Shown piece after piece: positions 13,399 to 39,714 of a stretch of 56,581 bases of DNA (position 1 is its first letter; the number at the start of each line of letters is the position of its first letter). The notes beneath the pieces are model-generated. The model was given only the letters and a program-made list of their open reading frames with translations, was not told where the DNA came from and made no database searches. Source of the DNA: an archaeon. GTDB taxonomy: Archaea; Iainarchaeota; Iainarchaeia; Iainarchaeales; GCA-2688035. Location of the stretch: positions 1-56,581 of the forward strand of contig JBAZQI010000003.1 of assembly GCA_041645325.1 (NCBI GenBank), in the 5' to 3' direction. A program made the position numbers and the translations under genes.

Positions 13399-13941
13399 TC
13401 ATTCCACAATCCACTTTTCTTTAACCAGTTTTTTGTACAGCTTTTCAGCGGACTCTTGCACCGATTCCTTGTCTGTTTCAAGCACCAGGTCCGGTTTTTT
13501 TGGTTCCTCGTAAGGCAGGTTTATTCCGAGGAAAGTTTCAAAGCCTGGTTTTTTTGCCTTTGCGTCCTTGTAATGGCCTTTTACATCCCTCTGCTCGCAT
13601 ACCTCCAAGGGGCATTTTACGAAAATTTCCAAAAAATTCCGGATACTGCTTTTTGCATAATCCCTGATTTCCTGCATGGGAGAGGCAACGCAGGCAATGT
13701 TCAGAACACCATTGCTTGAAATAAGCTCGCAGATGTCAGCAACCCTTTTGATGTGCTTATTCCTGTCTTCCCTTGAAAAGCCAAGGTCCGCAGAAATTTT
13801 TTTCCTTACTGCATCGCCATCCAAAACAACAAGCTTCACCCCGTTTTTCCTCAGCTTTTCCGCAAGCGCATTCGCAATAGTAGTCTTGCCGCTGCAATGC
13901 AAGCCAGTGAACCAGACTGTACCGCCTTTTGCTTGCATCAA
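13399..13941 (-). CDS. cysC: Adenylylsulfate (APS) kinase
   Basis: The P-loop VWFTGLHCSGKTTIA, LDGDAVRK and GFSREDRNKHIKRV are present. It overlaps sat by 4 nt. Confidence 0.92.
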   Translation of the reverse strand: MMQAKGGTVWFTGLHCSGKTTIANALAEKLRKNGVKLVVLDGDAVRKKISADLGFSREDRNKHIKRVADICELISSNGVLNIACVASPMQEIRDYAKSSIRNFLEIFVKCPLEVCEQRDVKGHYKDAKAKKPGFETFLGINLPYEEPKKPDLVLETDKESVQESAEKLYKKLVKEKWIVE

Positions 13942-15092
13942 ATCAAATCCTCCTTGCTTAAAACACCTGCAACCTCCGGCCTTATAAGGCCAGGGCTCAT
14001 TGGCTTGCCTTCCATCAAAAGGTTTCTCACTGTTGTGCCGCTGATTTTCTGGAAATGTTCCTTTTCTTCCTCTGGAACTGCCCCTTCTTCCAAGACAATG
14101 TCTTTTTCCTTGTGAAAGTAGTAAACCGTGTCAATTGAAATTGGCTCAATGCCAACGCTTTCAGCCATTGTTTCAAGCATCCTGCAGGCTTCATCTATTT
14201 TGTAAAAGTCTTTGCCGAAAGCGCTTTTGACGCCTGCGTGGTCCCTGCCTACGATGAAGTGCGTGCACCCGAAGTTTTTCCTGACAATTGCATGGAATAT
14301 CACGTCCTTTGGGCCGGCGTAAAACATTGTTGTTGAAAGGGTTGAAAGCAAGACCCTATTTTTCGGGTAATAGTTTTCTATAAGCTGTTTGTAGGCCCTG
14401 ACTATTGCCTCCGGGCTGAAGTCACCGGGCTTTCTCCAGCCAATGATTGGCTGAATCATCAGGCCATCGCATATTTCAAGCGCCCGCCTTTGAAGGTTTT
14501 CATGGCCCCTGTGCGGAACATTTCTTGTATGGAAAGCCGCAATTGTTTCCCAGCCCTTTTTCTTGAATATTTCCCTTGTTTGCTTTGGCGTAAAATGGCA
14601 GTCGCTTGGCTCATGTTCAAAGCTGCTAATCTGCGTTATTTTTCCGCCAACAAAAAAGTCATCCAGAGAGCACAATTTGCTTACTCCTGGGTGGCTCAAG
14701 TCAGTTGTGCCAAAAATTTTTTTTGCGATTTGCTTTTTGTCAAATTTGAAAGTTTCTTCGACGTCCATTATCGCCTGCAGCTTCCCATCGAAAAACAGTC
14801 CTGCCCTTTCCGCTTTTAGGCCTTTAAGCTCAAGCGCTTTCTCTTTCGGCACTGAAAGCAATATGGGAACTGACCAAGGCAGGCCGTTAGGCAGCTGCGT
14901 TTTTTCTGTGCATGAAAAAAGCTCTTCTTGGCGCATGAATCCCTCCAGAGGAGAAAACGCACCGGTTGCAATCAGTTCTATGTTCAGCAGAATGTCCCTG
15001 TCTGTGTCAATTCTTGCCTGAAACTCCGGCACCCTGCCATTGTGCAGTGCCCTGTCGACAAGTTTTCCGCCATACGGTTTGTTTATAGCCAT
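13938..15092 (-). CDS. sat: Sulfate adenylyltransferase (ATP sulfurylase)
   Basis: AFHTRNVPHRGHE and HFIVGRDHAGV are the ATP-sulfurylase signature motifs. An N-terminal PUA-like region is present. Confidence 0.92.
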   Translation of the reverse strand: MAINKPYGGKLVDRALHNGRVPEFQARIDTDRDILLNIELIATGAFSPLEGFMRQEELFSCTEKTQLPNGLPWSVPILLSVPKEKALELKGLKAERAGLFFDGKLQAIMDVEETFKFDKKQIAKKIFGTTDLSHPGVSKLCSLDDFFVGGKITQISSFEHEPSDCHFTPKQTREIFKKKGWETIAAFHTRNVPHRGHENLQRRALEICDGLMIQPIIGWRKPGDFSPEAIVRAYKQLIENYYPKNRVLLSTLSTTMFYAGPKDVIFHAIVRKNFGCTHFIVGRDHAGVKSAFGKDFYKIDEACRMLETMAESVGIEPISIDTVYYFHKEKDIVLEEGAVPEEEKEHFQKISGTTVRNLLMEGKPMSPGLIRPEVAGVLSKEDLI

Positions 15093-15095
15093 CGC

Positions 15096-16796
15096 TTATC
15101 TTCCTTTTTGGCTCTTTTCCAGGTAGTCAAGGAACTCGCTTACCCTGTGCACTTCCAGAAGGTTTGTTTTCTTGACGCCGCTGTTGAAAACAGAGCCTGT
15201 AATCACAACCACTGACCTTTTTCCGATATATCCCTTCTGCATTGCCTTGAGTATTGCCTCTTTTTTATGTTCATTGGAGATATCATCAAGGCCTTTGCTT
15301 ATCAAAAGCGGGCAAACACCCCAAAGGATGTTAAGCTGCCTGAAAATTTTCTCGTTGGAAGTTGCGGCAATTATTTTTGGCAAAGGCATGTGGCTTGCAA
15401 TCATTCTTGCAGAGTATCCCCCGGATGTTAGGACAATGGTGGCATCAATCTCAAGCATTTTCTCCAGCTCGTAAATCGCTTTACCAATGGCATTGGTCAG
15501 ATTAACATCCCTCAAAGAGCCGTTCTCAATGGGCTTGATGTCGCCCTCCATTGCCTTGATTACTTTTGACATTGTTTCAACCGCTTCCAGCGGATATCTT
15601 CCAATTGCCGTTTCAGCCGAAAGCATTAGGCAGGAAGCGCCGTCCAAGACAGCGTTTGCAATGTCAGAAATTTCCGCCTTTGAAGCCTGATTGCTTTCAA
15701 TCATTGATTCGAGCATGTGGGTAGCGATTATCACCGGCTTTCCAACCCTATTGCATTCAAGAACGATTTTTTTCTGCATTTTTGGAACAAGCTCATAGGC
15801 TGTTTCGCTGCCCAAGTCGCCCCTGTCAATCATTATGCCATAAGCTTCCTTTATTATTTCCTTGTAGTTTGCTATTGCTTCTTTTGTTTCAATCTTTGCA
15901 ATAACTTTTGTCTTTGCGCTTATCACTTGGTTCAGGTTGCCATAGCCAAGCACCTCGTTCAAGGATTTAACATCCTCGGCTGTCCTGACAAAAGAATAGC
16001 CAACGAATTCCAAGTCGTTTTTTGCAGCAAACTCAGCCCACTTTCTGTCAACAGCTGAAATGCCACCATGCCCGAACTTTGTATCCGGGCAGTTGACGCC
16101 CTTGTTTTTTGCAATTGTGCCCTTTCCCGCAGACCTGCAAACAATTTCATTTTGGGAAACCTTTTCCGCAACAAGGCACAGCTTTCCGTCATCAATGAAG
16201 ATCTTGTCCCCTTTTTTGACAGAAGCAAAGAACTGCTCGTTTGGCAGGGGAATTCCTTTGCCTGGGCTTTCGGCGCTTTTCACAAATACGACTTTTTGCC
16301 CTTTTGCTACGTTGACTGGCGCCTCAATGGCAGTAAGCCTGATTTTTGGGCCTGGAATGTCCAAAAGAATCGGAACCTCCTTTGAAACAGACCTTATCAG
16401 GTTAACGAGCTTTAGTGCTGAGTCCTCAGTGCAGTGGGAAGCATTAAGCCGTGCGGCATCCATTCCTTTCTCAATAAGTCTTGCAATGGTTTTCCTGTCA
16501 GCCGAAGCCGGCCCGATTGTGCACAGTATCTTGGTTTTTTTGAAGCTTGAATCGGCAATTGTTTTCTCAAGTTCAGCCAGGGCAGAAAGCGCTTTGGGGC
16601 TGTTTTTAAAACAGTAAAGCAACTGGTTTTCATGGCTGGCTGATCCGACCAGCTTTTGCTTTTCAAATTCCTTCAGTATCTTGAAGGCGCTGCCCACGCT
16701 TATGCCAAGAAGCCTTGCTATCTGGTTGACGTTAAAGCTCTTGTCTGCGTTTTCAGAAAGGAGTTCAAGAACCCTAAAAGCATTTCTCCCGGCCAT
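15096..16796 (-). CDS. pyk: Pyruvate kinase with an extra ~85-aa N-terminal winged-helix-turn-helix domain
   Basis: Residues 1-~60 (AFRVLELLSENADKSFNVNQIARLLGISVGSAFKILKEFEKQKLV) look like a MarR/TrmB/IclR-type wHTH. PK motifs follow: TKILCTIGPAS, RLNASHC, DIPGPKIR, AKIETKEA, MIDRGDLGSE, THMLESM and LMLSAETAIGRYP. The stop lies 3 nt from the sat start. Confidence 0.88.
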   Translation of the reverse strand: MAGRNAFRVLELLSENADKSFNVNQIARLLGISVGSAFKILKEFEKQKLVGSASHENQLLYCFKNSPKALSALAELEKTIADSSFKKTKILCTIGPASADRKTIARLIEKGMDAARLNASHCTEDSALKLVNLIRSVSKEVPILLDIPGPKIRLTAIEAPVNVAKGQKVVFVKSAESPGKGIPLPNEQFFASVKKGDKIFIDDGKLCLVAEKVSQNEIVCRSAGKGTIAKNKGVNCPDTKFGHGGISAVDRKWAEFAAKNDLEFVGYSFVRTAEDVKSLNEVLGYGNLNQVISAKTKVIAKIETKEAIANYKEIIKEAYGIMIDRGDLGSETAYELVPKMQKKIVLECNRVGKPVIIATHMLESMIESNQASKAEISDIANAVLDGASCLMLSAETAIGRYPLEAVETMSKVIKAMEGDIKPIENGSLRDVNLTNAIGKAIYELEKMLEIDATIVLTSGGYSARMIASHMPLPKIIAATSNEKIFRQLNILWGVCPLLISKGLDDISNEHKKEAILKAMQKGYIGKRSVVVITGSVFNSGVKKTNLLEVHRVSEFLDYLEKSQKGR

Positions 16797-16810
16797 CTTT
16801 TCACCAAAAA

Positions 16811-16842
16811 AGTGAATAATATTTTAACAATAGTGAATAATA
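16811..16842. promoter_or_regulatory. Phased direct repeat AGTGAATAATA-N10-AGTGAATAATA over the HTH-pyk promoter; candidate operator
   Basis: There are two identical 11-mers, 21 nt start to start, lying ~15-45 nt upstream of the pyk ATG and interleaved with AT-rich TATA-like sequence and a GGTGA SD. Confidence 0.35.
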
Positions 16843-16952
16843 CTGGTGTGGTTGTATTTAAAAAGGTTTTCAGCAAGCGGCTGGCATGCTGAACAAATGA
16901 ATAATTAACACGCGGCTTGACTGCTTTTCTGCTTCAAGCACATGCCGCCATT

Positions 16953-17678
16953 TCATGCCTTGTTTTTTTCCGCTAGTTTTTTTGTGAGCGCGTAGAAGTC
17001 GAAAACCATTTTTATCCACACTCCGGTCCAAACAACTGTGAATATTAATAGCAGGGGGAATATTTGGTTTGTCAGGGCACCTACAGTAATCAGCGCCATG
17101 CTCAGGCCCCTGTTCCCTATTCTTCTTTTGCTGCTGATGCCAACCGTTGGCTTCAGGTCGCTTTTTTCCACATATCTTGCCCTTGTTGAAACCATATATG
17201 AAACCATTGCAAAGCTTATGACTGCCGGAATCCCTGCAATCAGAAAAGCAGCGTCATTCAGCAAGAAGTATTGGCCTATTGCTGCGGCTCCCATAAAGGC
17301 GGCGGTTGAATAAAAGTCAACCGTTGGATCAAGCCATGCCCCAAATGGGCTTCCTGTTTTGTTGATTCTTGCTATTTCGCCGTCAACGCAGTCAAGGATG
17401 AATGAAACCTGCAGCAGCAGCACGCCTGCGACAAGGTAAGGGTATTGCCCAAAAAGGAACAGCCCTGCGCCCACTAAGGCAACAGCAAATGCAGCAAGCG
17501 TGATTTGCCATGGGAGAATGCCTTTTTTGTAAAGTCGCATTGTTATTCTTGTGCTGAGCTTTCTGTAATTTCCCATTATGATGCAGTCGCTTTCCTTAAA
17601 GCAAACCGCCTGCAGTTCTTTTAATGAAAGTTCGTTGGCCTTGCTTTTCATTTCCTTTCCATTGTTTTTCCGCGCCAT
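16953..17678 (-). CDS. CDP-alcohol phosphatidyltransferase family membrane protein
   Basis: LDCVDGEIARINKTGSPFGAWLDPTVD fits D-x2-D-G-x2-A-R...G-x3-D-x3-D. Multiple TM helices are present. Confidence 0.8.
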   Translation of the reverse strand: MARKNNGKEMKSKANELSLKELQAVCFKESDCIIMGNYRKLSTRITMRLYKKGILPWQITLAAFAVALVGAGLFLFGQYPYLVAGVLLLQVSFILDCVDGEIARINKTGSPFGAWLDPTVDFYSTAAFMGAAAIGQYFLLNDAAFLIAGIPAVISFAMVSYMVSTRARYVEKSDLKPTVGISSKRRIGNRGLSMALITVGALTNQIFPLLLIFTVVWTGVWIKMVFDFYALTKKLAEKNKA

Positions 17679-17772
17679 AATAATCTTTCTTTTTTTAAGC
17701 CACTTTTAAGTTTGCCTTCACGCTTTTCAGCGCCCGACAATGTTCGTTCCGCCTGCAGAAGAAATCTTATAA

Positions 17773-19137
17773 TCAAATGATATTAATATATGCGTTATTG
17801 CTTTGTTCCCCTTTGTACTGCTTTTTTTTGAACATTTCCAATGCCTTGCCAATTGATTTTTTTAGCGTAAATTTGATTCCCGCACGGCCAATCTTGCCAT
17901 GCCCGGGTTCAAAATTATTATTTGCCTTTTTCATTTCAATTTCTTTAATTGAATAACTTGCCTCTTCCATACCTGCAATTGCTTCCTTTCCTTTAAACAA
18001 AATTCTGACGGAGAAATCTTTGTTCTTATTGCCTGTTTTAATGAAAACTTTTTCGCCGTCAAAGAATGCGTCAAAATCAGTTTTTTCCCTTTTAAGCCAC
18101 CATTGTGAAAACTCTTCCACGTTGGTCATCCAAACATTGCATTTTTCCGCGTATTCGAACATTTGCGAAACAACCCGGGGAAAGCGGGCAATTGCTTTGA
18201 ATGGATGCCCATAAAAGAAACAAGGAACGTTATTGCCCAGGTTTCTGTCAAAAGCCGCCTTGAAATAATCCAACATTTGCTTTTCGTTGAAATCCCTTGT
18301 CTTCAGTATTTCAATGCAGATTGGGTGGATGCCAATAAGCAATGTCTTTCCCTTCAGGTGAAATGGAAGGCAGTCATATCCCGCCCCAAATCCAACAGCA
18401 TATTCATAACCGCAGGAAACAAGTGCTGATATCATGTGTTCATTCAACAGGCCGTTTGGAGCGCAGAATCCCTTTGGCCGCAGGCCATTTGCCTTAAAGA
18501 ATCTGTCGGAAGCAATTACGTTTTCATAATCTTTTTCGGAACCAAAGAACTCATGCCTGAAATTGTGGTTGCCCACAATTTCATCGCTGAGCAGGCTTAA
18601 TATGGTTTTATCCGCTTTAATTGCTTCGCAATTGACAAACCAAACTGCCCTTTTGTGCTTTAAAACATCAATGGCTTTTTTGGTATCCGGCCGGCAGTCA
18701 AAATCAACATCAACATGGAAGCCGAATGCACTGCCGAACTTTTTGGGATAAAACCATTTATGGACAAAGGGCAATCCCCTGCTTTCAAATTTTTCCGTTA
18801 ATAGCCTGATAAAATCAAATGTATTTTTGCCTTTATGGCAGAAAGAAACAACTTCCGGAACACCGGTTTTTCCTCCGATAAAACCTTTTTCAATGGCCTT
18901 GTAATCGTGCAAATTGCCGGCATTGCAATCATGCAAAACCGAACCGCCTCCGGCAGCAAACTTTTCAATAAGCTTGTTTTCCTGTGGGGCAAGTTCTCTT
19001 GCAATAACCATGACGGAAAAATCTTCCAAGGAGAATGGCTTGTTGAAATCAACAATTTTATACGGCGAACCTATTTGTTCCAGCAGTTCCTGGGCTTCGG
19101 TTCCTTTCCCAACCAATCCGATGCACAACGGCTTCAT
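17773..19137 (-). CDS. Polysaccharide-deacetylase-like (NodB-fold?) protein with an uncharacterised N-terminal domain
   Basis: AFGFHVDVDFD...VGNHNFRH...FCAPNG resembles the metal-binding motifs of CE4-like deacetylases. I prefer the ATG at 19137 (MKPLCIGLVGKG), which leaves a 26-nt gap to the upstream gene. The track start at 19245 would overlap that gene by 82 nt. Confidence 0.55.
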   Translation of the reverse strand: MKPLCIGLVGKGTEAQELLEQIGSPYKIVDFNKPFSLEDFSVMVIARELAPQENKLIEKFAAGGGSVLHDCNAGNLHDYKAIEKGFIGGKTGVPEVVSFCHKGKNTFDFIRLLTEKFESRGLPFVHKWFYPKKFGSAFGFHVDVDFDCRPDTKKAIDVLKHKRAVWFVNCEAIKADKTILSLLSDEIVGNHNFRHEFFGSEKDYENVIASDRFFKANGLRPKGFCAPNGLLNEHMISALVSCGYEYAVGFGAGYDCLPFHLKGKTLLIGIHPICIEILKTRDFNEKQMLDYFKAAFDRNLGNNVPCFFYGHPFKAIARFPRVVSQMFEYAEKCNVWMTNVEEFSQWWLKREKTDFDAFFDGEKVFIKTGNKNKDFSVRILFKGKEAIAGMEEASYSIKEIEMKKANNNFEPGHGKIGRAGIKFTLKKSIGKALEMFKKKQYKGEQSNNAYINII

Positions 19138-19163
19138 ATAATTATCCTTCAAACAAACTTTTT

Positions 19164-20072
19164 CTATCCAGCCTTTTTTTGCTCTTGCTCTTCCTTGCTG
19201 ATTGCATAAATAGTTTCTCCCTTTTCCGCCAGGCTTCGCAGGCACCTGAAGACCCCGTTAACTGGCAAGGAACAGCAATATCCCCTGCCAATAAATGTTT
19301 CGCTTATTATCCCCTCTTCCCTGAAATGATTCTTTATCCTCTTTATTATTGCCGGATTTTTGTCAATGCAATAATTGTGGAATTCCGGGTCGTGCGCTTT
19401 TGTTTCAATCTCGCGTGTTTTTCCCTGGTTGTCAATGCTTTTGACGCTGTAAGCCTTTGGCAAGTAAATCGGCAAAGGAAACTCTTTCATTGAGTCTTCC
19501 ACGGCGTGATAGAAACTTATTGTATCAATATCAACGCCGAGGCAGACAATCTTTGCATCCAAAGACAACAGCTTGTAAAACGGGCTGTGCTCATCGAAAG
19601 GGGTTTTTGATTCCAACGTATCTTTTATAAGGTACTTGGCGTGCTTTCCGCATACCGCAACAGAATGTGTGGGATGCAGGCTCCTTTCAACGCCGTCAAA
19701 TTTTCTAAAACATTCTGTTATTGTGCCGACAACCGATTTACTTTTTTCTGCGTCAAAAGGCTGTATATCGTGCAGGTTAAATCCATGGAAGGTCGGCATC
19801 AAAACCGTGCCTTCTTCACCAACCTGTTCAAGAATGGATTCTATTACGGTTTTTGCCCCGCCTTCAACAAAGCCGAAAGAACTCAATGAACTGTGGACTT
19901 CAACAGCATCCCCTTTTTTTATTCCGAGTTCTTCAAGGCCTTTCAGGAACATTTCTTTGGTAACTATCTTTTTTGTAAGGTAATTGCCGTAAGCTTTTAG
20001 CCTTTTGGGCAGCCGCATTATTTTTTTTCCAATGGGCTTTGCCTGGCGCGGTATAAGCTTTTTAATATTCAT
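19164..20072 (-). CDS. AAC(3)-family (aminoglycoside 3-N-acetyltransferase fold) acyltransferase
   Basis: KGDAVEVHSSLSSFGFVEGGAKTVIESILEQVGEEGTVLMPTF matches the HSS-x-S-x-G...GG...G-x-GT-x-x-MPT pattern of Antibiotic_NAT proteins. The start is uncertain (20099, 20072 or 20018). Confidence 0.72.
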   Translation of the reverse strand: MNIKKLIPRQAKPIGKKIMRLPKRLKAYGNYLTKKIVTKEMFLKGLEELGIKKGDAVEVHSSLSSFGFVEGGAKTVIESILEQVGEEGTVLMPTFHGFNLHDIQPFDAEKSKSVVGTITECFRKFDGVERSLHPTHSVAVCGKHAKYLIKDTLESKTPFDEHSPFYKLLSLDAKIVCLGVDIDTISFYHAVEDSMKEFPLPIYLPKAYSVKSIDNQGKTREIETKAHDPEFHNYCIDKNPAIIKRIKNHFREEGIISETFIGRGYCCSLPVNGVFRCLRSLAEKGETIYAISKEEQEQKKAG

Positions 20073-20832
20073 AAAATCCGCGCCCTGTTTTTCTTCCAAG
20101 CTTTTTTTCCTTTACAAGCTTACTGATAACATTCGGCGGCTTAAATTTCTTGTCATTGGTCTGCTTGTACAAGCTAACCATGATATCGTATACTGTATCC
20201 AATCCAATTAAATCCATTAAAGCAAAAGGGCCCAAAGGATGGTTAAGGCCGCACTTAACGGCCAAATCCATGTCAAAGCAACTTATCTTTTTTTCTTCGG
20301 ACATGTTTATTGAGTCAACCAAGAAAGGGAAAAGCAGGGCATTGACAATAAACCCTGGCGAATCATTCAGCACCACTGTTTTCTTGCCTGCTGTTTCAAC
20401 AATGCCTTTTGCAAAAGATACTGTTTCAGCGCCTGTTTCCTTTCCTTTGACTATCTCAACAAGCGGCATCTTGTGGGCCGGGTTGAAAAAATGCACTCCA
20501 AGAAAATTCTTTTTATTTGAAACAAAGCCTGAAAGCAGGTCTATTGACATTGAAGAAGTATTTGAGGCTACAATGGCATCAGCTTTGCCGTACTTTGATA
20601 TGCTTTCCAAGGCTTTTTTCTTTGCATTAACCTCTTCAAAAACAGTTTCTATAATAAAATCGCATTCAGCCAATCTGCCAAAGTCCATAGTAAAAGCAAT
20701 TCCGTTTTCTATTTCATCGCTCTTGTCTACGCAATCCACCAACAGAACATTAAAATTATTGCCAGCAAACAGTTTTGCTATGCTTTTGCCCATGGTTCCT
20801 GCGCCAACAATGCCAATATTCCTATTATCCAT
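20062..20832 (-). CDS. hbd: 3-hydroxyacyl-CoA (3-hydroxybutyryl-CoA) dehydrogenase
   Basis: IGIVGAGTMGKSIA, FFNPAHKMPLVEIV, NDSPGFIVNALLFPF and HPLGPFALMDLIGLD form the canonical 3HCDH N- and C-terminal domain motifs. Confidence 0.88.
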   Translation of the reverse strand: MDNRNIGIVGAGTMGKSIAKLFAGNNFNVLLVDCVDKSDEIENGIAFTMDFGRLAECDFIIETVFEEVNAKKKALESISKYGKADAIVASNTSSMSIDLLSGFVSNKKNFLGVHFFNPAHKMPLVEIVKGKETGAETVSFAKGIVETAGKKTVVLNDSPGFIVNALLFPFLVDSINMSEEKKISCFDMDLAVKCGLNHPLGPFALMDLIGLDTVYDIMVSLYKQTNDKKFKPPNVISKLVKEKKLGRKTGRGFYEY

Positions 20833-20988
20833 TTTTCCGCCCGGCTTTTCACTATAGTTTTAATTCGAAGTAATGCATAAAAACCTTGTTTTGCGGCCCG
20901 ATTGCTTTTGTTCTATTTTTGTACTATAATTTTTTTTTTAAACCATTTGCCGTTGATTTAGAATCGGATGCCTGAAAAAACCGGGAAA

Positions 20989-21009
20989 GGCAGTTTTTTT
21001 CTTGCTGCC
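20989..21009 (-). terminator. Hairpin plus T-run downstream of the methyltransferase gene
   Basis: The minus strand reads GGCAG-CAAGAAAAAAA-CTGCC followed by TTTCCCGGTTTTTT. Confidence 0.4.
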
Positions 21010-21021
21010 TCAAACGGCTTT

Positions 21022-21687
21022 TCACTTGTTGATACGCGCAGTCTTAGGCTTTAAAATAAATAAATGGGACGAAAAAAGGGGCTTATACTCTATAATATCA
21101 AAATCTTCAACCAACTCAAATGCTTTCTTTTTAGAAAACTCAACATGGGTCTGCCTTCCAATAGTCTGCCTATGCTTCCACAATCCGGCCTTCTCGGAAA
21201 AATGGACAATCCTCCAAAACAAAGAATCTGAATTCGGAACAGTCAAAACAATCCTGCCATCGGGCTTCAGATACTTGGCGGCATTCAGCAGGCCTTCCCT
21301 CGGGTCGGAGAGGTGCTCAAAGACCTCCACGGAAAGGATAAAATCAAAACTTTCTTTTGGATAAGGCAAAACATCCAAAGCTGACAAGACCTTTGAATCT
21401 ATTTTCACGCCGTACCCTGAAGAAAACCGCTCCAGCTCCTTGATGTAATCGGGATTGATGTCAAAAGCCGAAACAATGCCTCCGGCCAAAGCCATGCCGA
21501 CGCTCATTGCTCCCTGGCCGCAGCCGACATCCAAACAATGGTCTCCTTTCTTAATGTCAATGTGCCGCCAGACCTCTTCGGTGCGCTTGTTCATTTCAAA
21601 CTTGCTTAAAAAACTATACTTCTTCGTAGCTCTTTCACGATTGTCGCAACTGTGTTTCCAAATAGGCCTTATATCAACACCGTTCAT
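21022..21687 (-). CDS. Class I SAM-dependent methyltransferase
   Basis: Motif I is HCLDVGCGQGAMS, followed by VSAFDINP. AAGGAG lies 8 nt upstream of the ATG. Confidence 0.8.
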   Translation of the reverse strand: MNGVDIRPIWKHSCDNRERATKKYSFLSKFEMNKRTEEVWRHIDIKKGDHCLDVGCGQGAMSVGMALAGGIVSAFDINPDYIKELERFSSGYGVKIDSKVLSALDVLPYPKESFDFILSVEVFEHLSDPREGLLNAAKYLKPDGRIVLTVPNSDSLFWRIVHFSEKAGLWKHRQTIGRQTHVEFSKKKAFELVEDFDIIEYKPLFSSHLFILKPKTARINK

Positions 21688-21815
21688 TTAAACAACTCCT
21701 TTTTTCCCCATCCTTTTTTCCCGGCAGCATTAGTTCGTCTGCCGTTCCAAGATGTTTGCCTCACCGTTGTGCAGAACTAATATCGTGCCTACAATTCTTG
21801 CATTTCATCTTTTCA

Positions 21816-22505
21816 TCAACCTATTTTTTTGATTGCAATTAAATTAATAAAATTGCCCTTTCTGTTGAAAACACAAAAGTAATCATCGCCAATTAGCTTG
21901 ATAAGGTCTTTCTCTGAATACCTTACAGCCCTCTTAATGTAAATGTGTTCAAGCCTCTGAGCAGCAACTCTATCCGAATAACCCACGGCTCTTAGCAAAG
22001 CAAGATTAACTTTAAATGGTATAAATCTAAGAAAACGCCGCAATAAAACTTCAGCCAAACTAAAAAACACCCCCCTCTTGCCATAAACCCCGATATAAAG
22101 CATTTTACTTGCAACCCGCTTTAACTCAGGCAAGGTTTTGGAATCATCAACATGATGCAAAACGCCTGCGCAAACAACCGCATCAAATTCTCGGTCCTTG
22201 AAACTAAGTGGTTCTTCAAGGTTTGCTTTGTAAATAATGGTTGATTTTAACAAGCCATCTTTTTTAGTGGCACAAATGCTTTCGATGAACAAGTCAATAG
22301 CAGTTACATTAAATCCTGCTTCTTCCAAAACTATTGCGCCAGCCCCCCATCCACAACCAGCATCAAGCACTTTCTTAACGCCGTACTTTTTAGCAAAAAA
22401 AAGAAAGTCTTGCAAATACCTTTCCTTCATCATTGCAACTAAGTTCACTTTATCTTGTGGCTTATATAATCGCCATTTTTTAGAAAATAATTCTTCATTC
22501 TTCAT
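21816..22505 (-). CDS. Class I SAM-dependent methyltransferase
   Basis: VLDAGCGWGAGAIVLEEAGFNVTAIDL (motifs I/II) and FDAVVCAGVLHHV are present. Confidence 0.8.
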   Translation of the reverse strand: MKNEELFSKKWRLYKPQDKVNLVAMMKERYLQDFLFFAKKYGVKKVLDAGCGWGAGAIVLEEAGFNVTAIDLFIESICATKKDGLLKSTIIYKANLEEPLSFKDREFDAVVCAGVLHHVDDSKTLPELKRVASKMLYIGVYGKRGVFFSLAEVLLRRFLRFIPFKVNLALLRAVGYSDRVAAQRLEHIYIKRAVRYSEKDLIKLIGDDYFCVFNRKGNFINLIAIKKIG

Positions 22506-22532
22506 TCTTCTTCTGCCTCTTTTTTTGCTTAT

Positions 22533-24233
22533 TTATTTGCCTAAAATAAAATTTCCAATTACCAAACAATCAACTCTTTTATCTTTGAACGCATTTATTG
22601 CATCTACTGGTGAACATACAATCGGTTCTTCATGTGCATTAAAAGAAGTGTTTACAAACAGGGGCAAGCCACTGGCATCCTGATAAGCTTTTAATGTCTG
22701 ATAATAAAGTTTGTTTGATTCTTTGCAAACAACTTGCGGCCTTGCAGTTCCATCGACATGAACAACAGCCCCTGCCATTTTTTGCTTTTCTTTTGGAACA
22801 TCGAAAGTAATCGTCATAAACTTTGAAGGATACTTTGCATTTTCATAACCTGTAAAATAGTTCTTGGCTTCTTCTTCTAAAATTGAAGGGGCAAAAGGCA
22901 TAAACTCGGTTCTTGAAAGCCGCTTATTCAAACTGTCATTAATGCCCTTATCAGTCGGCTTTGCAACAATGCTTCTGTTGCCCAGGGCACGCGGGCCGTA
23001 TTCCATTCTTCCCTGGAACAAGCCGACAATCTTTCCTTCATCAATTCTGGCGGCAACCTCTGTGGGAATGTCATTGTAGTCTTTTGCGTTGAGTCCATTG
23101 TCAGTGATAGCCTGCTGGATTTCTTCATTGTTGAATTCCGGCCCAAAGTAAACGTCATTTAAGGCAAAGGGCTTGATGTTGGCTTGGTTTAGTGCTGCGC
23201 CAAGTGCAGTGCCGCCATCGCCCATATGTGGATGCACAAATATGCTTTCAACATTTGGCAAAGCCAAAAGCCTTTGGTTTAGTTTAACATTTGCAAACAC
23301 GCCTCCGGCCAAAACAACATTAGAAATGCCCGTCTTGTCAACCCAATATGAAACATACTTTGACAAAACATTTTCCAAATGAATTTGAACACTTGCAGCT
23401 AAATTCGCCTTATTAAAATTTCCAAGTTCTTTCTTAATCTTATTCAAAGCAGCATCATGTTTTGCTTTTAAATAATTAACAGTTCTGCCATTATTGTAAT
23501 TAATCCAATTCTCGAAATTTGGCAAGTATTCTGGTTTTCCAAAAGCGGCCAAACCAGTAATTTTTCCCTCATGCTTGTTTGAAGTAAAACCGCATAACTC
23601 TGTGACATAAGAGTAATATTTTCCAACACTATTGTAACTGCCTAACTCACTCAATCTTTCCATGTGACCATTTTCAGCAACAGAAATAGTTGAACACAAA
23701 GCATCGCCAGCAGCATCATAAGTGACAACTAAAGCCTTATTCAAACCGCCGGTAAAGTAAGCACAGGCGGCATGGCATTGATGATGCTCCACAAATTCAA
23801 CATCGCAATCAAAACCATGTCCCTTCAACCAAGCTTTCAACTTCTTATTGCGCTTCCAATACCATTGACCATACAAATTTTCGCCAAACTTTTGGATTCC
23901 AATGAAATAGTCTTTATTAAACAAATCTCCCAACAAAAAGGCGGCAGAACCAAGAAATTGCCTTGGCCCCATTATTACATTCATTGTCTGTACTTGCTTT
24001 AATGAAATTGGTTTTGGAAACCAGGGGGCATGCCAATTCGCAACAGCAATCAAATCAATATCCTTTGGCTCAAGTTTAGCCTGCTTCAAAACGCAATCAA
24101 TAGACTGTAGAGGAAGTCCTCGCACAAGTTTTATGCGATTAAGCCTTTCCTCATTCACAGCCGCAACAATCTTCCCATCCTTTACAACAGCAACTCCGCA
24201 ATCATGCCCATCACTCAACCCCAATACGTTCAT
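22533..24233 (-). CDS. Carbamoyltransferase, NodU/CmcH family
   Basis: MNVLGLSDGHDCGVAVVKDGKIVAAVNEERLNRIK is the ASKHA-type N-terminus typical of the family. ...HHQCHAACAY... is present, and the C-terminal YrdC-like part has NTSFNAHEEPIV. Confidence 0.9.
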   Translation of the reverse strand: MNVLGLSDGHDCGVAVVKDGKIVAAVNEERLNRIKLVRGLPLQSIDCVLKQAKLEPKDIDLIAVANWHAPWFPKPISLKQVQTMNVIMGPRQFLGSAAFLLGDLFNKDYFIGIQKFGENLYGQWYWKRNKKLKAWLKGHGFDCDVEFVEHHQCHAACAYFTGGLNKALVVTYDAAGDALCSTISVAENGHMERLSELGSYNSVGKYYSYVTELCGFTSNKHEGKITGLAAFGKPEYLPNFENWINYNNGRTVNYLKAKHDAALNKIKKELGNFNKANLAASVQIHLENVLSKYVSYWVDKTGISNVVLAGGVFANVKLNQRLLALPNVESIFVHPHMGDGGTALGAALNQANIKPFALNDVYFGPEFNNEEIQQAITDNGLNAKDYNDIPTEVAARIDEGKIVGLFQGRMEYGPRALGNRSIVAKPTDKGINDSLNKRLSRTEFMPFAPSILEEEAKNYFTGYENAKYPSKFMTITFDVPKEKQKMAGAVVHVDGTARPQVVCKESNKLYYQTLKAYQDASGLPLFVNTSFNAHEEPIVCSPVDAINAFKDKRVDCLVIGNFILGK

Positions 24234-25432
24234 TTCAAAGTCTCCTTATACTTCTTAACCATTTTTTTAACAAATATATCATAACTCAAATCATTTTTTA
24301 CTGTTTCTATACCGGCTTTTGAAAGGGTTGAAGCCAAATCCTTGTCCGACAAAATTCTGCAAACAGCCTTTGCCAAAGCGCTTGAATCCTTTTGCGGGAC
24401 AAGCAAACCATTAATGCCGTTTTTAACAACGTCGGGAATCCCGCCAACATTACAGGAAACAACAGGAACCCCGCAAGCCATTGCTTCTCCAATTACAAGC
24501 CCTTGACCCCCCTCTGTTTCTCCTTTGCTGTCAACAATCGCAGGCAAACAAAAAACATCAGCGCCGGCATAATAACTTGGCAAATCCGGAATAGGGATGC
24601 GCCCAGCCAAATAAACACTCTTGCTCAAACCTAATTCATCAACAACAGATTTGATTTTAAATTCTTCGGGTCCGCCGCCGCCAATAACAAGCAAAGCATT
24701 AGGGCATTTTTTAAGAATTTCAGGCATTGCTTTAACAAGATAAACATGGCCTTTCCTTTCAACAAGGCGACCCATTACAAAAATAACAGGGCGTTTTAAA
24801 AAATTCCGCCCAACAACTTTCTCATTATACCGTTTAGTATTAACCCCCCCACAAAACAAAACATCATGCTCTCTCGCCCCGATGCCAACAGCAGCGTCAT
24901 GGGTAGCAACACTATTAGAAGTCAACAATTTTGCAAACTTTGTTGGAAAACTTGCCAAAAAAGGCAAGCCAATCTTTTTAGACAGGTAAATCTCTGCTCC
25001 AAACAAATGCAAAGCAAAACAAAAATTGCAAAAATGCAAAGCAATCAATGCGGCCCATCCTTGGGGAAAAGCCCACAAAACCTGAACAACATCAGGCTCA
25101 AATTCCCTCACTGCTTTTCTTAAAGCAAAAGCATTCGACAAAATATACGGAACAAACTGTGCCTTTGCCAGCAAACTTCCCTTAATATTCTGCGCAATTC
25201 CACAGCCATAAGCAATCTTTTGCATTGAAACCGGCCACCAATACTGGAATCTGCGAATTTTCACGCCATCAATTTCATGCTCTTTGCACGCATTGCTGCA
25301 ATGGGCAGCCAAAACCATTACTTTATGTCCATTTCTTTCAAAAGCAGTTGCAACCTCGTAAACAAAATCAAGCTGCTCATCTTTCTTAGACTTCAAGAAA
25401 GTTGAAGTAACAAACAAAACCTTCAAATACAT
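24230..25432 (-). CDS. Glycosyltransferase family 4 (GT-B, Glycos_transf_1)
   Basis: GRLVERKGHVYLV...ETEGGQGLVIGEAMACGVPVVSCNVGGIPDVV is the E-x7-E region. It overlaps the carbamoyltransferase gene by 4 nt. Confidence 0.88.
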   Translation of the reverse strand: MYLKVLFVTSTFLKSKKDEQLDFVYEVATAFERNGHKVMVLAAHCSNACKEHEIDGVKIRRFQYWWPVSMQKIAYGCGIAQNIKGSLLAKAQFVPYILSNAFALRKAVREFEPDVVQVLWAFPQGWAALIALHFCNFCFALHLFGAEIYLSKKIGLPFLASFPTKFAKLLTSNSVATHDAAVGIGAREHDVLFCGGVNTKRYNEKVVGRNFLKRPVIFVMGRLVERKGHVYLVKAMPEILKKCPNALLVIGGGGPEEFKIKSVVDELGLSKSVYLAGRIPIPDLPSYYAGADVFCLPAIVDSKGETEGGQGLVIGEAMACGVPVVSCNVGGIPDVVKNGINGLLVPQKDSSALAKAVCRILSDKDLASTLSKAGIETVKNDLSYDIFVKKMVKKYKETLK

Positions 25433-27969: not shown

Positions 27970-29382
27970 TCACTTCATGTACTGCAGCAGGCTCCACCCG
28001 CTTCTAAAGCTTGACTTTAGCAAATTCCAGTTTGTGAGCCTCTGCTTTAAAGCCTTGAGCATGTAACTTGGCCTCAGGTAGTATTCCTTGTATGCCTGCT
28101 TGAGCCAGTACTGCATGTCCTGCATGCTGAGGCCGGGGTATTCAAAAATCGGCCTGATTTTTCCCTCGCAGTCAAGGTAGTCTGCCCAGTTTTTGAACCT
28201 GAGGTAACCTTTGCTTTTGAGAAACTCGTAGAATTCTGTTCCGGGGTATGGCTGGGCAACGCTGAACTGCACAAAATCAATGTTAAGCTGTTTTGCAAAC
28301 TCTATGGTTTTCTTGATGCTTTCAACTGTTTCGCCAGGCATTCCAAAAACAAATGTTCCATGCACCTGTATGCCTGCATCCTCAAATAATTTTGCGGCTT
28401 TTTTTGCCTGTTCTGTTGTGGCCCTCGGCCCCTTTTTCATGTTTTTCAGCTGTTCGTCACAGCCTGATTCAAAGCCAACCTTTACCAAAAAACATCCGGC
28501 TTTTTTCATTGCCTCCGCAATCTCCTTGTCAACGGAGTCAACCCTGCTGTAGGCGGCCCAGGGAAGGTTAATTTTTTCCTTAACCATCAAGCCGCACAAT
28601 TCAAGCAGGTATTTTTTGTTGACATTGAGGGTGTCATCGTTGAATAATACGCTTTTGAACTTGAAATTTTCTTTAAGGTGCTTGAGTTCTGCGACAACGT
28701 TTTCAGGAGACCTCATCCTGTAGCCCCTGCCATACATCAGCTGGGGCCCTGCGCAATAAATGCATTGGTGCGGGCAGCCCCTTCCGGCAAGCACAAAAGT
28801 GAAGGGATTCTTGTACAATGCAGAGTAATATTTTTCGTTTGGCAGCAGTTCCCTTGCCGGAAACGGAAGCTTATCAAGGTCCTGAATCAGCGGCCTTGCC
28901 TTGTTATGTATAATCTTTTTGCCTTTCTTGAACGAAATGCCTTCAATTTCCTCAAGCCTGGCTCCTTCGGCCAAATCCCTTATGGTGTAATCGTATTCGC
29001 CCCTTGCCACAATATCAAAGCCCTTGTCCAAGGTGTCTTCGGGAACAGCTGTTGCATGCACTCCGACAGCAATTGTTTTTGCGCCTGTTTTTGCCGCGAT
29101 TTTTTTTGCAATGCCCGCATCGCTTTCAACAGAGGCAGTTGAGGTAAGCATTACCACATACTCTGGTTCAAAGCCTGAAATTCTTTCAATTGTGGCTTCT
29201 TCGCCGATTTCAAGGGCTGGCGCGTCGATTAGGTCAACCTCGTGCCCGTTTCTTTGGCAGACTGCTGCGGCATAGCCCAGCATTATCGGCGGATGCAGGG
29301 CTTTTTGGGGCGAGACTGCCTGAAACCTGACTTCCCTGTTGTACGTCCCCCTGAACGGTGGGTTCAAAAATACGATATTCAT
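27970..29382 (-). CDS. Cobalamin-binding (class B) radical SAM enzyme
   Basis: An N-terminal B12-type Rossmann domain (LGYAAAVCQRNGHEVDLIDA) and the radical SAM cluster motif GRGCPHQCIYC are present. It is a paralog of 51606-53090. Confidence 0.88.
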   Translation of the reverse strand: MNIVFLNPPFRGTYNREVRFQAVSPQKALHPPIMLGYAAAVCQRNGHEVDLIDAPALEIGEEATIERISGFEPEYVVMLTSTASVESDAGIAKKIAAKTGAKTIAVGVHATAVPEDTLDKGFDIVARGEYDYTIRDLAEGARLEEIEGISFKKGKKIIHNKARPLIQDLDKLPFPARELLPNEKYYSALYKNPFTFVLAGRGCPHQCIYCAGPQLMYGRGYRMRSPENVVAELKHLKENFKFKSVLFNDDTLNVNKKYLLELCGLMVKEKINLPWAAYSRVDSVDKEIAEAMKKAGCFLVKVGFESGCDEQLKNMKKGPRATTEQAKKAAKLFEDAGIQVHGTFVFGMPGETVESIKKTIEFAKQLNIDFVQFSVAQPYPGTEFYEFLKSKGYLRFKNWADYLDCEGKIRPIFEYPGLSMQDMQYWLKQAYKEYYLRPSYMLKALKQRLTNWNLLKSSFRSGWSLLQYMK

Positions 29383-29502: not shown

Positions 29503-30795
29503 ATGGCAAAGCATTCGATAACCCTGGTTAACCCTGCTTTCGGCGTTTATGTTGCGCATCCCAGCCCGCCGCTTGGACTAGCCTATCTCAAGGCCGCTCT
29601 TGAAAAGAACGGAATACCTGCTGTGCTTGTTGATGAAACAGCAGGAATGTCAATAACGCCTGAATCAATTGAAACGGAGTGGGTCGGCATTTCGGTTTTT
29701 ACGCCAACAGCCAAGATGGCTTACGAAATGGCCGATGCATTCAGGGCAATCGGGAAAAAGGTTGTGCTTGGCGGCCCGCATGTTTCAATACTGCCAAAAG
29801 AGGCGCTGAGGCATGCCGACAAGGTTATTGTCGGCGAGGGCGAAAAAAGCATTCTTGAGATTTTTTCGTCAAAGAAAAAGGTAATAAGCAGCCTGCTCAT
29901 AAAAGACATTGATTCAATTCTTTTTCCGGACTGGCACGGCCTTCCTTTGGAAAAGTACACGGCGCCTACAAGAAAGCACGCCTATCTCAAGGTCATGACT
30001 TCAAGGGGCTGCCCCTGGGGCTGTGTCTACTGCTTTAAGGGCGTTTTTGGCCGCTGTTACAGGATGAGATCGTTCCAAAACGTGGTTGATGAGGTTGAGG
30101 CATTGCAAGCCGAGTATGGCACAAGGGAAATTGCTTTCATTGATGACAATTTTTCGCAAAACAGGGAAAGGACAGTTGACATCTGCCGGGAAATCCTGCA
30201 AAGGCGGATAAAGATTGACTGGGCCTGCCCGAATGGCGTGAGGGTTGACACAATGGATTTGCCTTTGCTTAAGCTCATGAAAAAGGCGGGCTGTTACCAG
30301 CTTTCTTTCGGCGTTGAGTCTGGAAACCAGGAAGTGCTTGACAAAATCGGAAAAGGCATTAAATTGGAGCAGGTTGAAAATGCAGTGGGGTGGGCGAAGG
30401 AAGCTGGCATTGAAACAATCGGCTTTTTTATGATAGGCCTGCCTTTTGACAATGAGAAAACAATGCAGCAGACAATTGATTTTGCAAAAAAATTGCCGTT
30501 GGACCTTGTGCAGTTCACGGTAACAGTTCCATACCCCGGAACAGAGCTTTACGGCATGGTTGAAAAAAAAGGCAGGTTTTTGGTAGAGGACTGGAGCGCT
30601 TTCGGCAGCTATTCCGGAAAAGCCTATTACGAGTTCGGGGCCCTTGACAAGGACTTGGTCGAAAGAATGTACAAGAAGGCCTACAAGGAGGTTTACTTCA
30701 GGCCCGGTTATGCCCTGAAAAGGGTTGCAAAGAATCCAAAGCTTTTGCTCTCAGGCGTGAAATACTTCTCGGCAATGTTCGGGAAAAAGAATTGA
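29503..30795 (+). CDS. Cobalamin-binding (class B) radical SAM enzyme
   Basis: LGLAYLKAALEKNGIPAVLVDE is the B12 domain and SRGCPWGCVYC is the C-x3-C-x2-C motif. It is divergent from 27970-29382. Confidence 0.88.
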   Translation: MAKHSITLVNPAFGVYVAHPSPPLGLAYLKAALEKNGIPAVLVDETAGMSITPESIETEWVGISVFTPTAKMAYEMADAFRAIGKKVVLGGPHVSILPKEALRHADKVIVGEGEKSILEIFSSKKKVISSLLIKDIDSILFPDWHGLPLEKYTAPTRKHAYLKVMTSRGCPWGCVYCFKGVFGRCYRMRSFQNVVDEVEALQAEYGTREIAFIDDNFSQNRERTVDICREILQRRIKIDWACPNGVRVDTMDLPLLKLMKKAGCYQLSFGVESGNQEVLDKIGKGIKLEQVENAVGWAKEAGIETIGFFMIGLPFDNEKTMQQTIDFAKKLPLDLVQFTVTVPYPGTELYGMVEKKGRFLVEDWSAFGSYSGKAYYEFGALDKDLVERMYKKAYKEVYFRPGYALKRVAKNPKLLLSGVKYFSAMFGKKN

Positions 30796-35306: not shown

Positions 35307-36338
35307 TTAAATAATCCCTGCTTCCTTCAAAAGCAGCCTGAGTTCCTCCCTGCTGAGGGCCTTTGCATTTTTTGAATCAATGTTGCAGGTTTTGCCATAC
35401 TGGCTCTCTGTCTTTTTTTCCTGAATTGTGCCGACAAGGTCGGGCAAAGAATGAATCTTGAACATCAGCTCCTCTTCCTCCATGTTGCCGCATTCGTCCT
35501 GCGTCATCAATTCCTCAAACAGCTTTTCTCCGCAGCGCCTTCCGATTATTTTCCGCTTAATCTGCTCTGGCTTGAATCCATATGCCGGTGCAAGCTCTTC
35601 AATCATCACTTCCGCAAGGTCCTCAATCCTCATCACCGGCATTTTAAGGATATAAATGTCCCCGGCTTTTGCCTCGGTCGTTGCCTTCAGCACAAGGTCA
35701 ACTGCCTTCGAAATGCTCATGACAAAGCGCGTCATGTCAGTATCGGTTATGGTTACAGGGCCGCCTGCCTTTATCTGCTTCTTCATCAGCGGGATGACAG
35801 AGCCGTTGGAGTCAAGCACGTTTCCAAACCGGACACAGGAAAACACGGTCCTCTTTTTGCCCTTGTAGCTGTTTGCATTAATCGTCAGCCTTTCAGCAAG
35901 CAGCTTGGTTGCGCCCATGACATTCACGGGATTTACCGCCTTGTCAGTGCTGATTGTAATCATCTTTTCCACTTCTGCGTGCAAAGCAGCCTCAATCACG
36001 TTCTGCGTGCCGAAAACATTTGTCTTCGCCGCCTCAAAGGGATTGTATTCGCACAATGGCACATGCTTCAAAGCGGCTGCGTGGAAGATGATATCAATGT
36101 CTTCCACAGCCATCATCATTCTTTCCCTGTCCCTGATGTCGCCAATCAGAAACCCCACGTTCATGGGGGAGCCGAGCTCGTGCTTTAGCTCAAACTGCCT
36201 GTTTTCGTTTATATCAAGGCTTCTTACGCTTTTTGGCCTGAACTTGAGGATGCTTCTCAGGATTTCGCTTCCGATTGAACCGGCGCCTCCTGTAATCAGG
36301 ACCTTCTTTCCCTCAAAAAAGTTTTTGCGTGAAGCCAT
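35307..36338 (-). CDS. pseB: UDP-GlcNAc 4,6-dehydratase, PseB/FlaA1/CapD-like (Polysacc_synt_2)
   Basis: KKVLITGGAGSIGSEILRSIL is present. It is a soluble ~340-aa short form and the last gene of the nonulosonic acid operon. Confidence 0.82.
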   Translation of the reverse strand: MASRKNFFEGKKVLITGGAGSIGSEILRSILKFRPKSVRSLDINENRQFELKHELGSPMNVGFLIGDIRDRERMMMAVEDIDIIFHAAALKHVPLCEYNPFEAAKTNVFGTQNVIEAALHAEVEKMITISTDKAVNPVNVMGATKLLAERLTINANSYKGKKRTVFSCVRFGNVLDSNGSVIPLMKKQIKAGGPVTITDTDMTRFVMSISKAVDLVLKATTEAKAGDIYILKMPVMRIEDLAEVMIEELAPAYGFKPEQIKRKIIGRRCGEKLFEELMTQDECGNMEEEELMFKIHSLPDLVGTIQEKKTESQYGKTCNIDSKNAKALSREELRLLLKEAGII

Positions 36339-36344
36339 GCTAAT

Positions 36345-37475: not shown

Positions 37476-37480
37476 TCAAA

Positions 37481-37885: not shown

Positions 37886-37898
37886 TTTCTCACCTTGC

Positions 37899-39707: not shown

Positions 39708-39714
39708 AGAAAAT

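Follow-up and report, generated by a model that had tools for sequence, protein, structure and literature searches.

An archaeal gene trio with an AAC(3)-fold transferase and a NodB-like protein as a candidate glycan N-acyl-exchange cassette

We analyzed a 56,581-nt stretch of DNA (GenBank assembly GCA_041645325.1, contig JBAZQI010000003.1, positions 1–56,581; hereafter the window) from an archaeon of the Iainarchaeota. It carries three consecutive minus-strand genes encoding a protein related to 3-hydroxybutyryl-coenzyme A (CoA) dehydrogenase (Hbd), a protein with the fold of the aminoglycoside 3-N-acetyltransferases (AAC(3)), and a NodB-like deacetylase homolog (table 1). The ATG of the AAC(3)-like gene lies inside the hbd frame, with an overlap of 11 nt, and exactly 26 nt separate its stop codon from the start of the NodB-like gene. 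The open reading frame (ORF) positions thus bear out the coordinates, the minus-strand placement, the overlap, and the spacing reported in a preliminary description of this DNA that was made from the sequence alone. Gaps set the trio apart on both sides: 189 nt of AT-rich sequence precede it and 94 nt follow it. In the upstream gap, a hairpin followed by a T-run can be read right behind the preceding methyltransferase gene, as can TATA-like AT-rich boxes ahead of the hbd ATG; transcription of the trio as a unit of its own probably begins here. Scanning 16800–21900 for sigma-70 promoters and terminators gave nothing above shuffled expectation, and no Rfam family or tRNA was detected in the window. 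In the public annotation of the contig, hbd seems to be represented by a fragment alone (P0246, 80 aa, in the Hbd cluster).

The AAC(3)-like protein matches PF02522 (Antibiotic_NAT) over profile positions 2–229 of 232 (E = 3.2e-47; 161.5 bits for a gathering score of 25) and no other Pfam family at E ≤ 0.01, which confirms its previous assignment. In a Foldseek search with its AlphaFold2 (AF2) model (predicted local distance difference test score, pLDDT, 87.2), the nearest structures are BA2930, FrbF, and YokD (E ~1e-21, 21–27% identity); with AAC(3)-III, AAC(3)-IV, and AAC(3)-VI included, E values range from 1e-19 to 1e-22 and target TM-scores from 0.73 to 0.83. A profile search with the family agrees, retrieving BA2930, FrbF, and YokD at E values of 1e-38 to 1e-43. 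All 19 aligned relatives retain H189 and E192, and the family profile places a conserved H-x-x-E in register with the H-L-S-E segment of BA2930, whose His183 is mutated in the deposited structures. The protein and all its close relatives begin with a basic helical extension of about 37 residues that is absent from the solved enzymes and that may serve as a membrane-surface anchor.

FrbF, BA2930, and YokD share the Antibiotic_NAT fold with the window protein, but at 21–27% identity only and without the N-terminal basic extension, and no NodB-like partner is reported for any of them in the literature and database entries examined. FrbF belongs to the biosynthesis of the phosphonate FR-900098, and its PDB title describes an N-acetyltransferase of phosphonate biosynthesis; the fold thus serves biosynthesis as well as resistance. 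The use of this fold outside resistance is therefore not new in itself. As for its proposed use in glycan tailoring, which the preliminary description presented as noteworthy, full-text literature searches returned no report of a PF02522/Antibiotic_NAT/AAC(3) protein acting as a glycan N-acyltransferase. The family and fold matches and the conserved His/Glu pair would also suit a true aminoglycoside 3-N-acetyltransferase that conferred resistance and lay in a glycan region by chance. We consider this highly improbable, since all NCBIfam AAC(3) models score far below their cut-offs (AAC_3, 106 vs. 270 bits; AAC_3_IV, 81 vs. 420; AAC_3_II, 67 vs. 480), identity to the solved AAC(3) enzymes is only 18–27%, the gene is translationally coupled to hbd, its clade is defined by a conserved NodB-like partner, and no mobile-element context is visible among the ORFs scanned. 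Judged from these scores, this ORF should not be annotated as a resistance gene, and the earlier caution on this point is upheld.

Two groups of relatives have unusual settings. The closest AAC(3)-like homolog, P0002 (64% identity), is encoded by a marine-sediment contig of 34% GC (L001 1–4559; L002), on which about 16 co-directional ORFs of 33–106 aa, rich in lysine and glutamate, lie on both sides of the gene. No hbd or NodB homolog was detected by tblastn in its flanks at L001 and L002. The L001 contig may belong to a virus or another mobile element. An alternative genetic code was rejected for L001 and L002, where all three stop codons occur frequently, and with many tiny lysine-rich ORFs around P0002 we abandoned its neighborhood as a guide to function. 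The other group consists of proteins of 480–600 aa in which an AAC(3)-like domain is fused to other sequences (L118, L070, L075, L081, L088, L090, and L091). In L118 (9056–10834), the N-terminal half gives weak matches to GH130, GH32, and BNR-like beta-propellers, and a short-chain dehydrogenase/reductase (SDR) gene follows 4 nt downstream.

The NodB-like protein is a more divergent case. The window protein scores 20.6 bits against PF01522, below the threshold of 23.1, which is exceeded by its homologs P0241 (23.2), P0243 (24.9), and P0244 (28.5) and by the deacetylase partner at L003 (35.8). The family profile matches solved CE4 deacetylases at E = 2e-7, with the H-x3-H (CE4 HSxxH) and xPxG motifs in register, and the family alignment contains the invariant residues D143-x-D145, H191-x3-H195, P227-x-G229, H271, and H311. 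Together, these observations support the proposed NodB-like deacetylase homology. The protein combines a reduced N-terminal alpha/beta domain with a C-terminal beta domain and has only four detectable homologs among 5.8 billion sequences. All four (P0241–P0244, 518–522 aa) have a longer N-terminal alpha/beta domain, of which the window protein lacks about 75 residues.

The Hbd-like protein matches both expected Pfam domains, 3HCDH_N (PF02737, 4e-43) and 3HCDH (PF00725, 2e-28). Its top NCBIfam model is a 3-hydroxybutyryl-CoA dehydrogenase, with 229 bits for a cut-off of 408, and all such models score below cut-off. Alignment with relatives reveals a deletion of about 26 residues after beta-2 of the Rossmann domain, relative to canonical Hbd. 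Across this alignment, H114, E126, S93, and N164 are invariant; we take the first two to be the catalytic His-Glu pair and the others the substrate-binding Ser and Asn. The term canonical used in the preliminary description was an overstatement in view of the score and the deletion, and the protein is better viewed, on sequence grounds, as a divergent short Hbd. It has no close homolog, the best matches being 42–47% identical. Both of its nearer relatives whose context was read lie in glycan clusters. In Vibrio atypicus (P0157, L092), the gene overlaps that of a 310-aa hexapeptide acyltransferase within an O-antigen/capsular polysaccharide cluster. In a Micrarchaeota genome (P0185, L093), it overlaps a PF01522 deacetylase gene, and genes for an AglB-like protein and a hexapeptide acyltransferase are close by. 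Like the trio, these two loci couple a short Hbd of the same subgroup translationally to glycan-tailoring genes, and the Micrarchaeota locus couples it to a PF01522 deacetylase; unlike in the trio, the acyltransferase is a left-handed beta-helix protein. They are uncharacterized loci, hence parallels rather than proofs, and lead us to predict that the same three-function cassette exists with another transferase fold.

Gene neighborhoods were collected by exact look-ups and by scanning GTDB and metagenomes, which contributed 80 loci each. Relatives of the NodB-like protein were examined in nine contexts (the window, L003, L004, L012, L013, L094, L095, L096, and L097), in each of which the gene directly adjoins an AAC(3)-like gene, and the same arrangement occurs at L099. 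The three homologs of the window protein that were examined, out of four, are among them (L094, L095, and L096). The Saganbacteria/Margulisbacteria loci (L003, L004, L012, L013, and L099) encode shorter NodB-like proteins that are homologous to that of the window at 2e-18, the value obtained by BLASTP against the deacetylases encoded next to the AAC(3)-like genes at L003 and L004. The NodB-paired AAC(3)-like proteins form one clade in a neighbor-joining tree. At L094 and L095, one of which comes from a Diapherotrites archaeon, the pair lies beside genes for AglB/STT3, a member of the GlcNAc-1-P transferase family (AglH; GlcNAc, N-acetylglucosamine), Alg14, and Alg13, and at L003 it is inserted between a C-methyltransferase gene and GT4/Wzy genes. 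These contexts suggest a function in glycan assembly, on a lipid-linked oligosaccharide or a polysaccharide. At L003, no sugar aminotransferase gene is present within the ±8 kb shown, and the amine freed by the deacetylase would therefore be the only one available there. No report of a pairing between PF02522 and a NodB-like deacetylase emerged from our full-text literature searches.

The complete trio, with identical order and overlap, is found at L097, a metagenomic locus whose AAC(3)-like protein (71% identity) is the nearest relative whose flanks could be read; over its last 52 residues its Hbd is 73% identical to the window protein, and its NodB-like protein is 47–68% identical. The expectation that hbd and the AAC(3)-like gene form a conserved unit was largely not borne out, an outcome that the preliminary description had named as counting against its model. 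No 3HCDH gene is present within 10 kb in any of the 80 GTDB relatives, and among the 80 metagenome loci only L097 and L105 have one near the AAC(3)-like gene. We consequently dropped the idea of a widespread hbd/AAC(3) pair. The conserved core is the AAC(3)-like/NodB-like pair, of which hbd is a rare partner.

A further arrangement was identified in Bacteroidota, at L007 (6658–11546) and about 45 further loci (e.g., L009, L019, L027, L047, and L071). This operon encodes, in order, a DUF7033 protein of about 435–450 aa with NodB-like "TFDID" and "HPS" motifs, an AAC(3)-like protein, a 328-aa protein without Pfam match that likewise resembles a deacetylase, and a protein of 304 aa that weakly matches GNAT (Acetyltransf_6). 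An SDR gene is added in about one quarter of the loci, and RadC and uracil phosphoribosyltransferase genes often adjoin. We found no published description of this operon in the literature searched.

Genes that could form 3-hydroxyacyl-CoA recur next to the transferase gene. L096 has the order NodB-like, AAC(3)-like, SDR/ketoreductase, with a MaoC gene also present; at L125, L142, and L176, a MaoC hydratase gene overlaps the AAC(3)-like stop codon; L105 has the order AAC(3)-like, crotonase, 3HCDH; and SDR genes adjoin the AAC(3)-like gene at L103, L106, L116, and L118 and in some of the Bacteroidota operons. Counted together, SDR, MaoC, crotonase, and 3HCDH genes number 15 in 392.5 kb at up to 1.5 kb from the AAC(3)-like gene versus 5 in 986.5 kb at 3–10 kb, an enrichment (binomial P = 2e-5, a statistic that ignores phylogeny) spread across 7 of 33 sequence clusters. 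This adjacency, the enrichment, and the glycan-cluster relatives of the Hbd together point to a 3-hydroxyacyl-CoA as the probable donor. The supplier slot would be filled interchangeably by an Hbd, an SDR ketoreductase, a MaoC hydratase, or a crotonase with an Hbd. From the established chemistry of their families, SDR and MaoC suppliers would give the (R) isomer, and lineages equipped with them would be expected to carry (R) 3-hydroxybutanoyl groups.

We propose that the trio is a glycan-tailoring cassette that would exchange the N-acyl group of a 2-acetamido sugar, replacing acetyl by 3-hydroxybutanoyl, a reading to which we assign a probability of roughly 0.58. The NodB/CE4-like protein would remove the N-acetyl group of a GlcNAc-type residue, probably on a lipid- or nucleotide-linked intermediate at the cytoplasmic side, as no signal peptide is present on any of the three proteins and the donor would be a CoA thioester. 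The short Hbd would then reduce acetoacetyl-CoA to (S)-3-hydroxybutyryl-CoA. In the last step, the AAC(3)-fold enzyme would use its conserved His/Glu site to N-acylate the exposed amine, generating an N-(3-hydroxybutanoyl) hexosamine, probably as the (S) isomer. Its destination could be the archaeal N-glycan or a surface polysaccharide. The three-step logic of the preliminary description thereby remains the best-supported reading, given the coupling of the trio and the recurrence of supplier genes beside its relatives, with the emphasis displaced from hbd to the AAC(3)/NodB pair.

Several observations weigh against this proposal. The retrieved structural relatives were named N-acetyltransferases by their depositors (BA2930 with acetyl-CoA, FrbF, and the AAC(3) enzymes), and the characterized members of the PF02522 family are known to use acetyl-CoA. 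The lack of 3HCDH genes around the GTDB relatives has been mentioned above. Supplier genes were not seen at the Saganbacteria/Margulisbacteria loci (L003, L004, L012, L013, and L099), nor at the Diapherotrites-type loci L094 and L095, where the contigs end inside the AAC(3)-like gene. The enrichment counts leave phylogeny out of account, and adjacency of SDR genes is weak evidence, these enzymes being common and many of them acting on sugars. None of the genes of the window would provide acetoacetyl-CoA. Finally, the AF2 model of the NodB-like protein, built from a five-sequence alignment, is poor (pLDDT 55) and was left out of the fold search; the active site is thus predicted from the sequence motifs.

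Some of these points would be explained under the main alternative, in which the AAC(3)-like protein simply acetylates an amino sugar produced elsewhere in the region, the NodB-like protein leaving a free glucosamine (GlcN) on a different residue and hbd being a passenger or having another role. The naming of the solved relatives, the crystallization of BA2930 with acetyl-CoA, and the pairs without an acyl-supply gene in the Saganbacteria-type loci all agree with such a function. In the window, the DegT aminotransferase gene and the nonulosonic-acid set could furnish the amino sugar, and no GNAT gene of PseH type turned up among the ORFs scanned, but a hexapeptide acetyltransferase gene already accompanies the nonulosonic-acid and epimerase genes. 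A plain acetyltransferase would leave the overlap of hbd with the transferase start codon, retained at L097, and the enrichment of 3-hydroxyacyl-CoA-forming genes beside AAC(3)-like genes without a reason, and at L003, with no aminotransferase in the ±8 kb, the obvious amine is the deacetylase product. We therefore regard it as unlikely.

The N-acyl-exchange proposal is in keeping with the surroundings of the trio (table 1). Profile searches identified glycan biosynthesis genes across the whole window, among them two Wzx-type flippases, GT2 and GT4 glycosyltransferases, TylF-, FkbM-, and class I methyltransferases, and UDP-glucose dehydrogenases. No thiolase, crotonase, acyl-CoA dehydrogenase, polyhydroxyalkanoate synthase, or other butyrate/polyhydroxybutyrate gene was present among its scanned ORFs. 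The preliminary description had placed the trio amid glycan genes and away from thiolase and crotonase genes, and this holds over the entire window; nor did these ORFs reveal the butyrate/polyhydroxybutyrate pathway that would have offered hbd another role.

Table 1. Genes and other features of the window discussed in the text.
Feature	Positions	Strand	Match or description	Proposed role or remark
Hbd-like gene, 256 aa	20832-20062	minus	Short 3-hydroxyacyl-CoA dehydrogenase	Proposed (S)-3-hydroxybutyryl-CoA supplier
AAC(3)/Antibiotic_NAT-fold gene, 302 aa	20072-19164	minus	From ATG (MNIKK)	Proposed N-acyltransferase
NodB/CE4-like gene, 454 aa	19137-17773	minus		Putative de-N-acetylase
Intergenic AT-rich stretch, 189 nt	20833..21021	minus		Upstream of hbd
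CDP-alcohol phosphatidyltransferase family gene	16953..17678	minus	PF01066, 4.6e-12	94 nt downstream of the trio
GT4 glycosyltransferase, NodU-like carbamoyltransferase, two class I methyltransferases	21022..25432	minus	Pfam/NCBIfam	
NodU-like carbamoyltransferase and two methyltransferases	21022-24233	minus	Weak NodS matches of the methyltransferases	
NodPQ-like 3'-phosphoadenosine 5'-phosphosulfate (PAPS) genes	13399-15092	minus	ATP sulfurylase and adenosine 5'-phosphosulfate (APS) kinase	
Pyruvate kinase, 566 aa, and adjoining ATP sulfurylase/APS kinase	13399-16796	minus	N-terminal MarR-type helix-turn-helix on the pyruvate kinase	Pyruvate kinase directly upstream
Nonulosonic-acid set	35307-40764	minus	PseB-like dehydratase, DegT aminotransferase, 602-aa fusion, NeuB	
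DegT aminotransferase	36345-37475			
NeuC/LegG-like 2-epimerase	44632-45765			
Hexapeptide acetyltransferase	46893-47486			With nonulosonic-acid and epimerase genes
B12-binding radical S-adenosylmethionine (SAM) protein	27970-29382	minus		
B12-binding radical SAM protein	29503-30795	plus		
B12-binding radical SAM protein	51606-53090	minus		
UDP-glucose/GDP-mannose dehydrogenase, 896 aa	7669-10359	plus	Intein_splicing, LAGLIDADG_3 (Pfam)	Interrupted by an intein

The immediate neighbors of the trio suggest another target, a glycolipid or small glycoside, for which a GT4 enzyme would glycosylate an alcohol or lipid head group with GlcNAc before de-N-acetylation and N-acylation, as in the synthesis of mycothiol and bacillithiol (MshA/MshB, BshA/BshB) or of GlcN-(archaetidyl)inositol and glycosylphosphatidylinositol. 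The CDP-alcohol phosphatidyltransferase gene just downstream has a weak match to archaetidylinositol-phosphate synthase (70 bits for a cut-off of 180), and the transferase bears an amphipathic basic N-terminal extension and the deacetylase family a basic C-terminus. The upstream GT4 has sub-threshold matches to BshA, MshA, and GlcNAc-phosphatidylglycerol synthase, but these are all far under the cut-offs and generic, and three tailoring genes plus the 189-nt gap separate it from the trio. As relatives of the pair lie beside AglB/Alg13/Alg14/AglH or Wzy/GT4 genes, we consider a glycolipid target improbable. Nonulosonic acids are a further possible substrate of the trio. The corresponding genes, 15 kb away, include a 602-aa fusion of a CMP-sugar cytidylyltransferase with a PseG/Epimerase_2-like domain.

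With its NodU-, NodS-, and NodPQ-like neighbors, the NodB-like gene looks like part of a Nod-factor-style decoration toolkit. The resemblance is striking, but the NodU and NodS matches are below family cut-offs and the others are generic. No sulfotransferase and no homolog of NodC (chitin-oligosaccharide synthase) was identified in the window. Three other features of the region deserve mention. The pyruvate kinase gene occupies an odd spot for a glycolytic enzyme and may be related to phosphoenolpyruvate supply or consumption or to regulation. The three B12-binding radical SAM proteins may be sugar C-methyltransferases. The intein interrupting the UDP-glucose/GDP-mannose dehydrogenase contains a LAGLIDADG homing-endonuclease domain.

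Glycans are known to contain N-(3-hydroxybutanoyl) amino sugars, as the preliminary description had stated, GlcN(3Hb) among them, and established 3-hydroxybutanoyltransferases comprise FdhC, QdhC, and the Acinetobacter lgaH/I, psaG/H, and qhbC modules (PMC4869667, PMC9676051). In these two papers on FdhC/QdhC-type modules, a dedicated Hbd gene is not mentioned (PMC4869667, PMC9676051). FdhC and QdhC, from O-antigen and capsule clusters of E. coli O103, Acinetobacter, and Hafnia, and the Acinetobacter K-locus modules resemble the trio in their proposed outcome and in their location in glycan clusters. As pathways, those of FdhC and QdhC have the outcome alone in common with the trio, whose transferase matches only PF02522 and which includes no aminotransferase. 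The amine that FdhC and QdhC acylate comes from an aminotransferase acting on a dTDP- or UDP-sugar rather than from a deacetylase. Enzymes of this type have GNAT or hexapeptide folds and are not known to adopt the AAC(3) fold. Literature searches for hbd genes in O-antigen clusters returned nothing relevant. The order of reactions proposed here parallels that of NodB/NodA in Nod factor synthesis and of LpxC/LpxD in lipid A synthesis, in which GlcNAc loses its N-acetyl group and receives a longer acyl chain in its place. NodA and LpxD are unrelated to the acyltransferase of the trio and the donor in both systems is acyl-acyl carrier protein, whereas that of the trio is presumably a short 3-hydroxyacyl-CoA. 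Read in this way, the trio is a new variation on known glycan tailoring.

If the proposed function is correct, the AAC(3) fold would be the third fold, beside GNAT and the left-handed beta-helix, for non-acetyl N-acylation of amino sugars. It would also provide a physiological role for the large environmental pool of proteins annotated as "AAC(3) family N-acetyltransferase," a matter of consequence for resistome surveys, which count such AAC(3) genes as resistance determinants. The proposal predicts a HexN(3-hydroxybutanoyl) residue of 247.106 Da (N-acetylhexosamine + 44.026) in poorly known lineages, including the relatives among DPANN archaea in which the pair lies beside N-glycosylation core genes. 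The occurrence of (S) or (R) 3-hydroxybutanoyl groups would be explained by which supplier gene joins the module. More tentatively, and with clearly less confidence than for the trio itself, the AAC(3)-like/NodB-like pair might represent an unrecognized, widespread N-acyl-exchange module acting on lipid-linked GlcNAc, that of the archaeal N-glycan core (next to AglB) included, with a range covering DPANN archaea, Saganbacteria/Margulisbacteria, and, in a remodeled form, Bacteroidota. Under this doubtful extension, interchangeable suppliers would set the stereochemistry, and the AAC(3) resistance fold would have descended from, or evolved in parallel to, ancient glycan N-acyltransferases using 3-hydroxyacyl-CoA.

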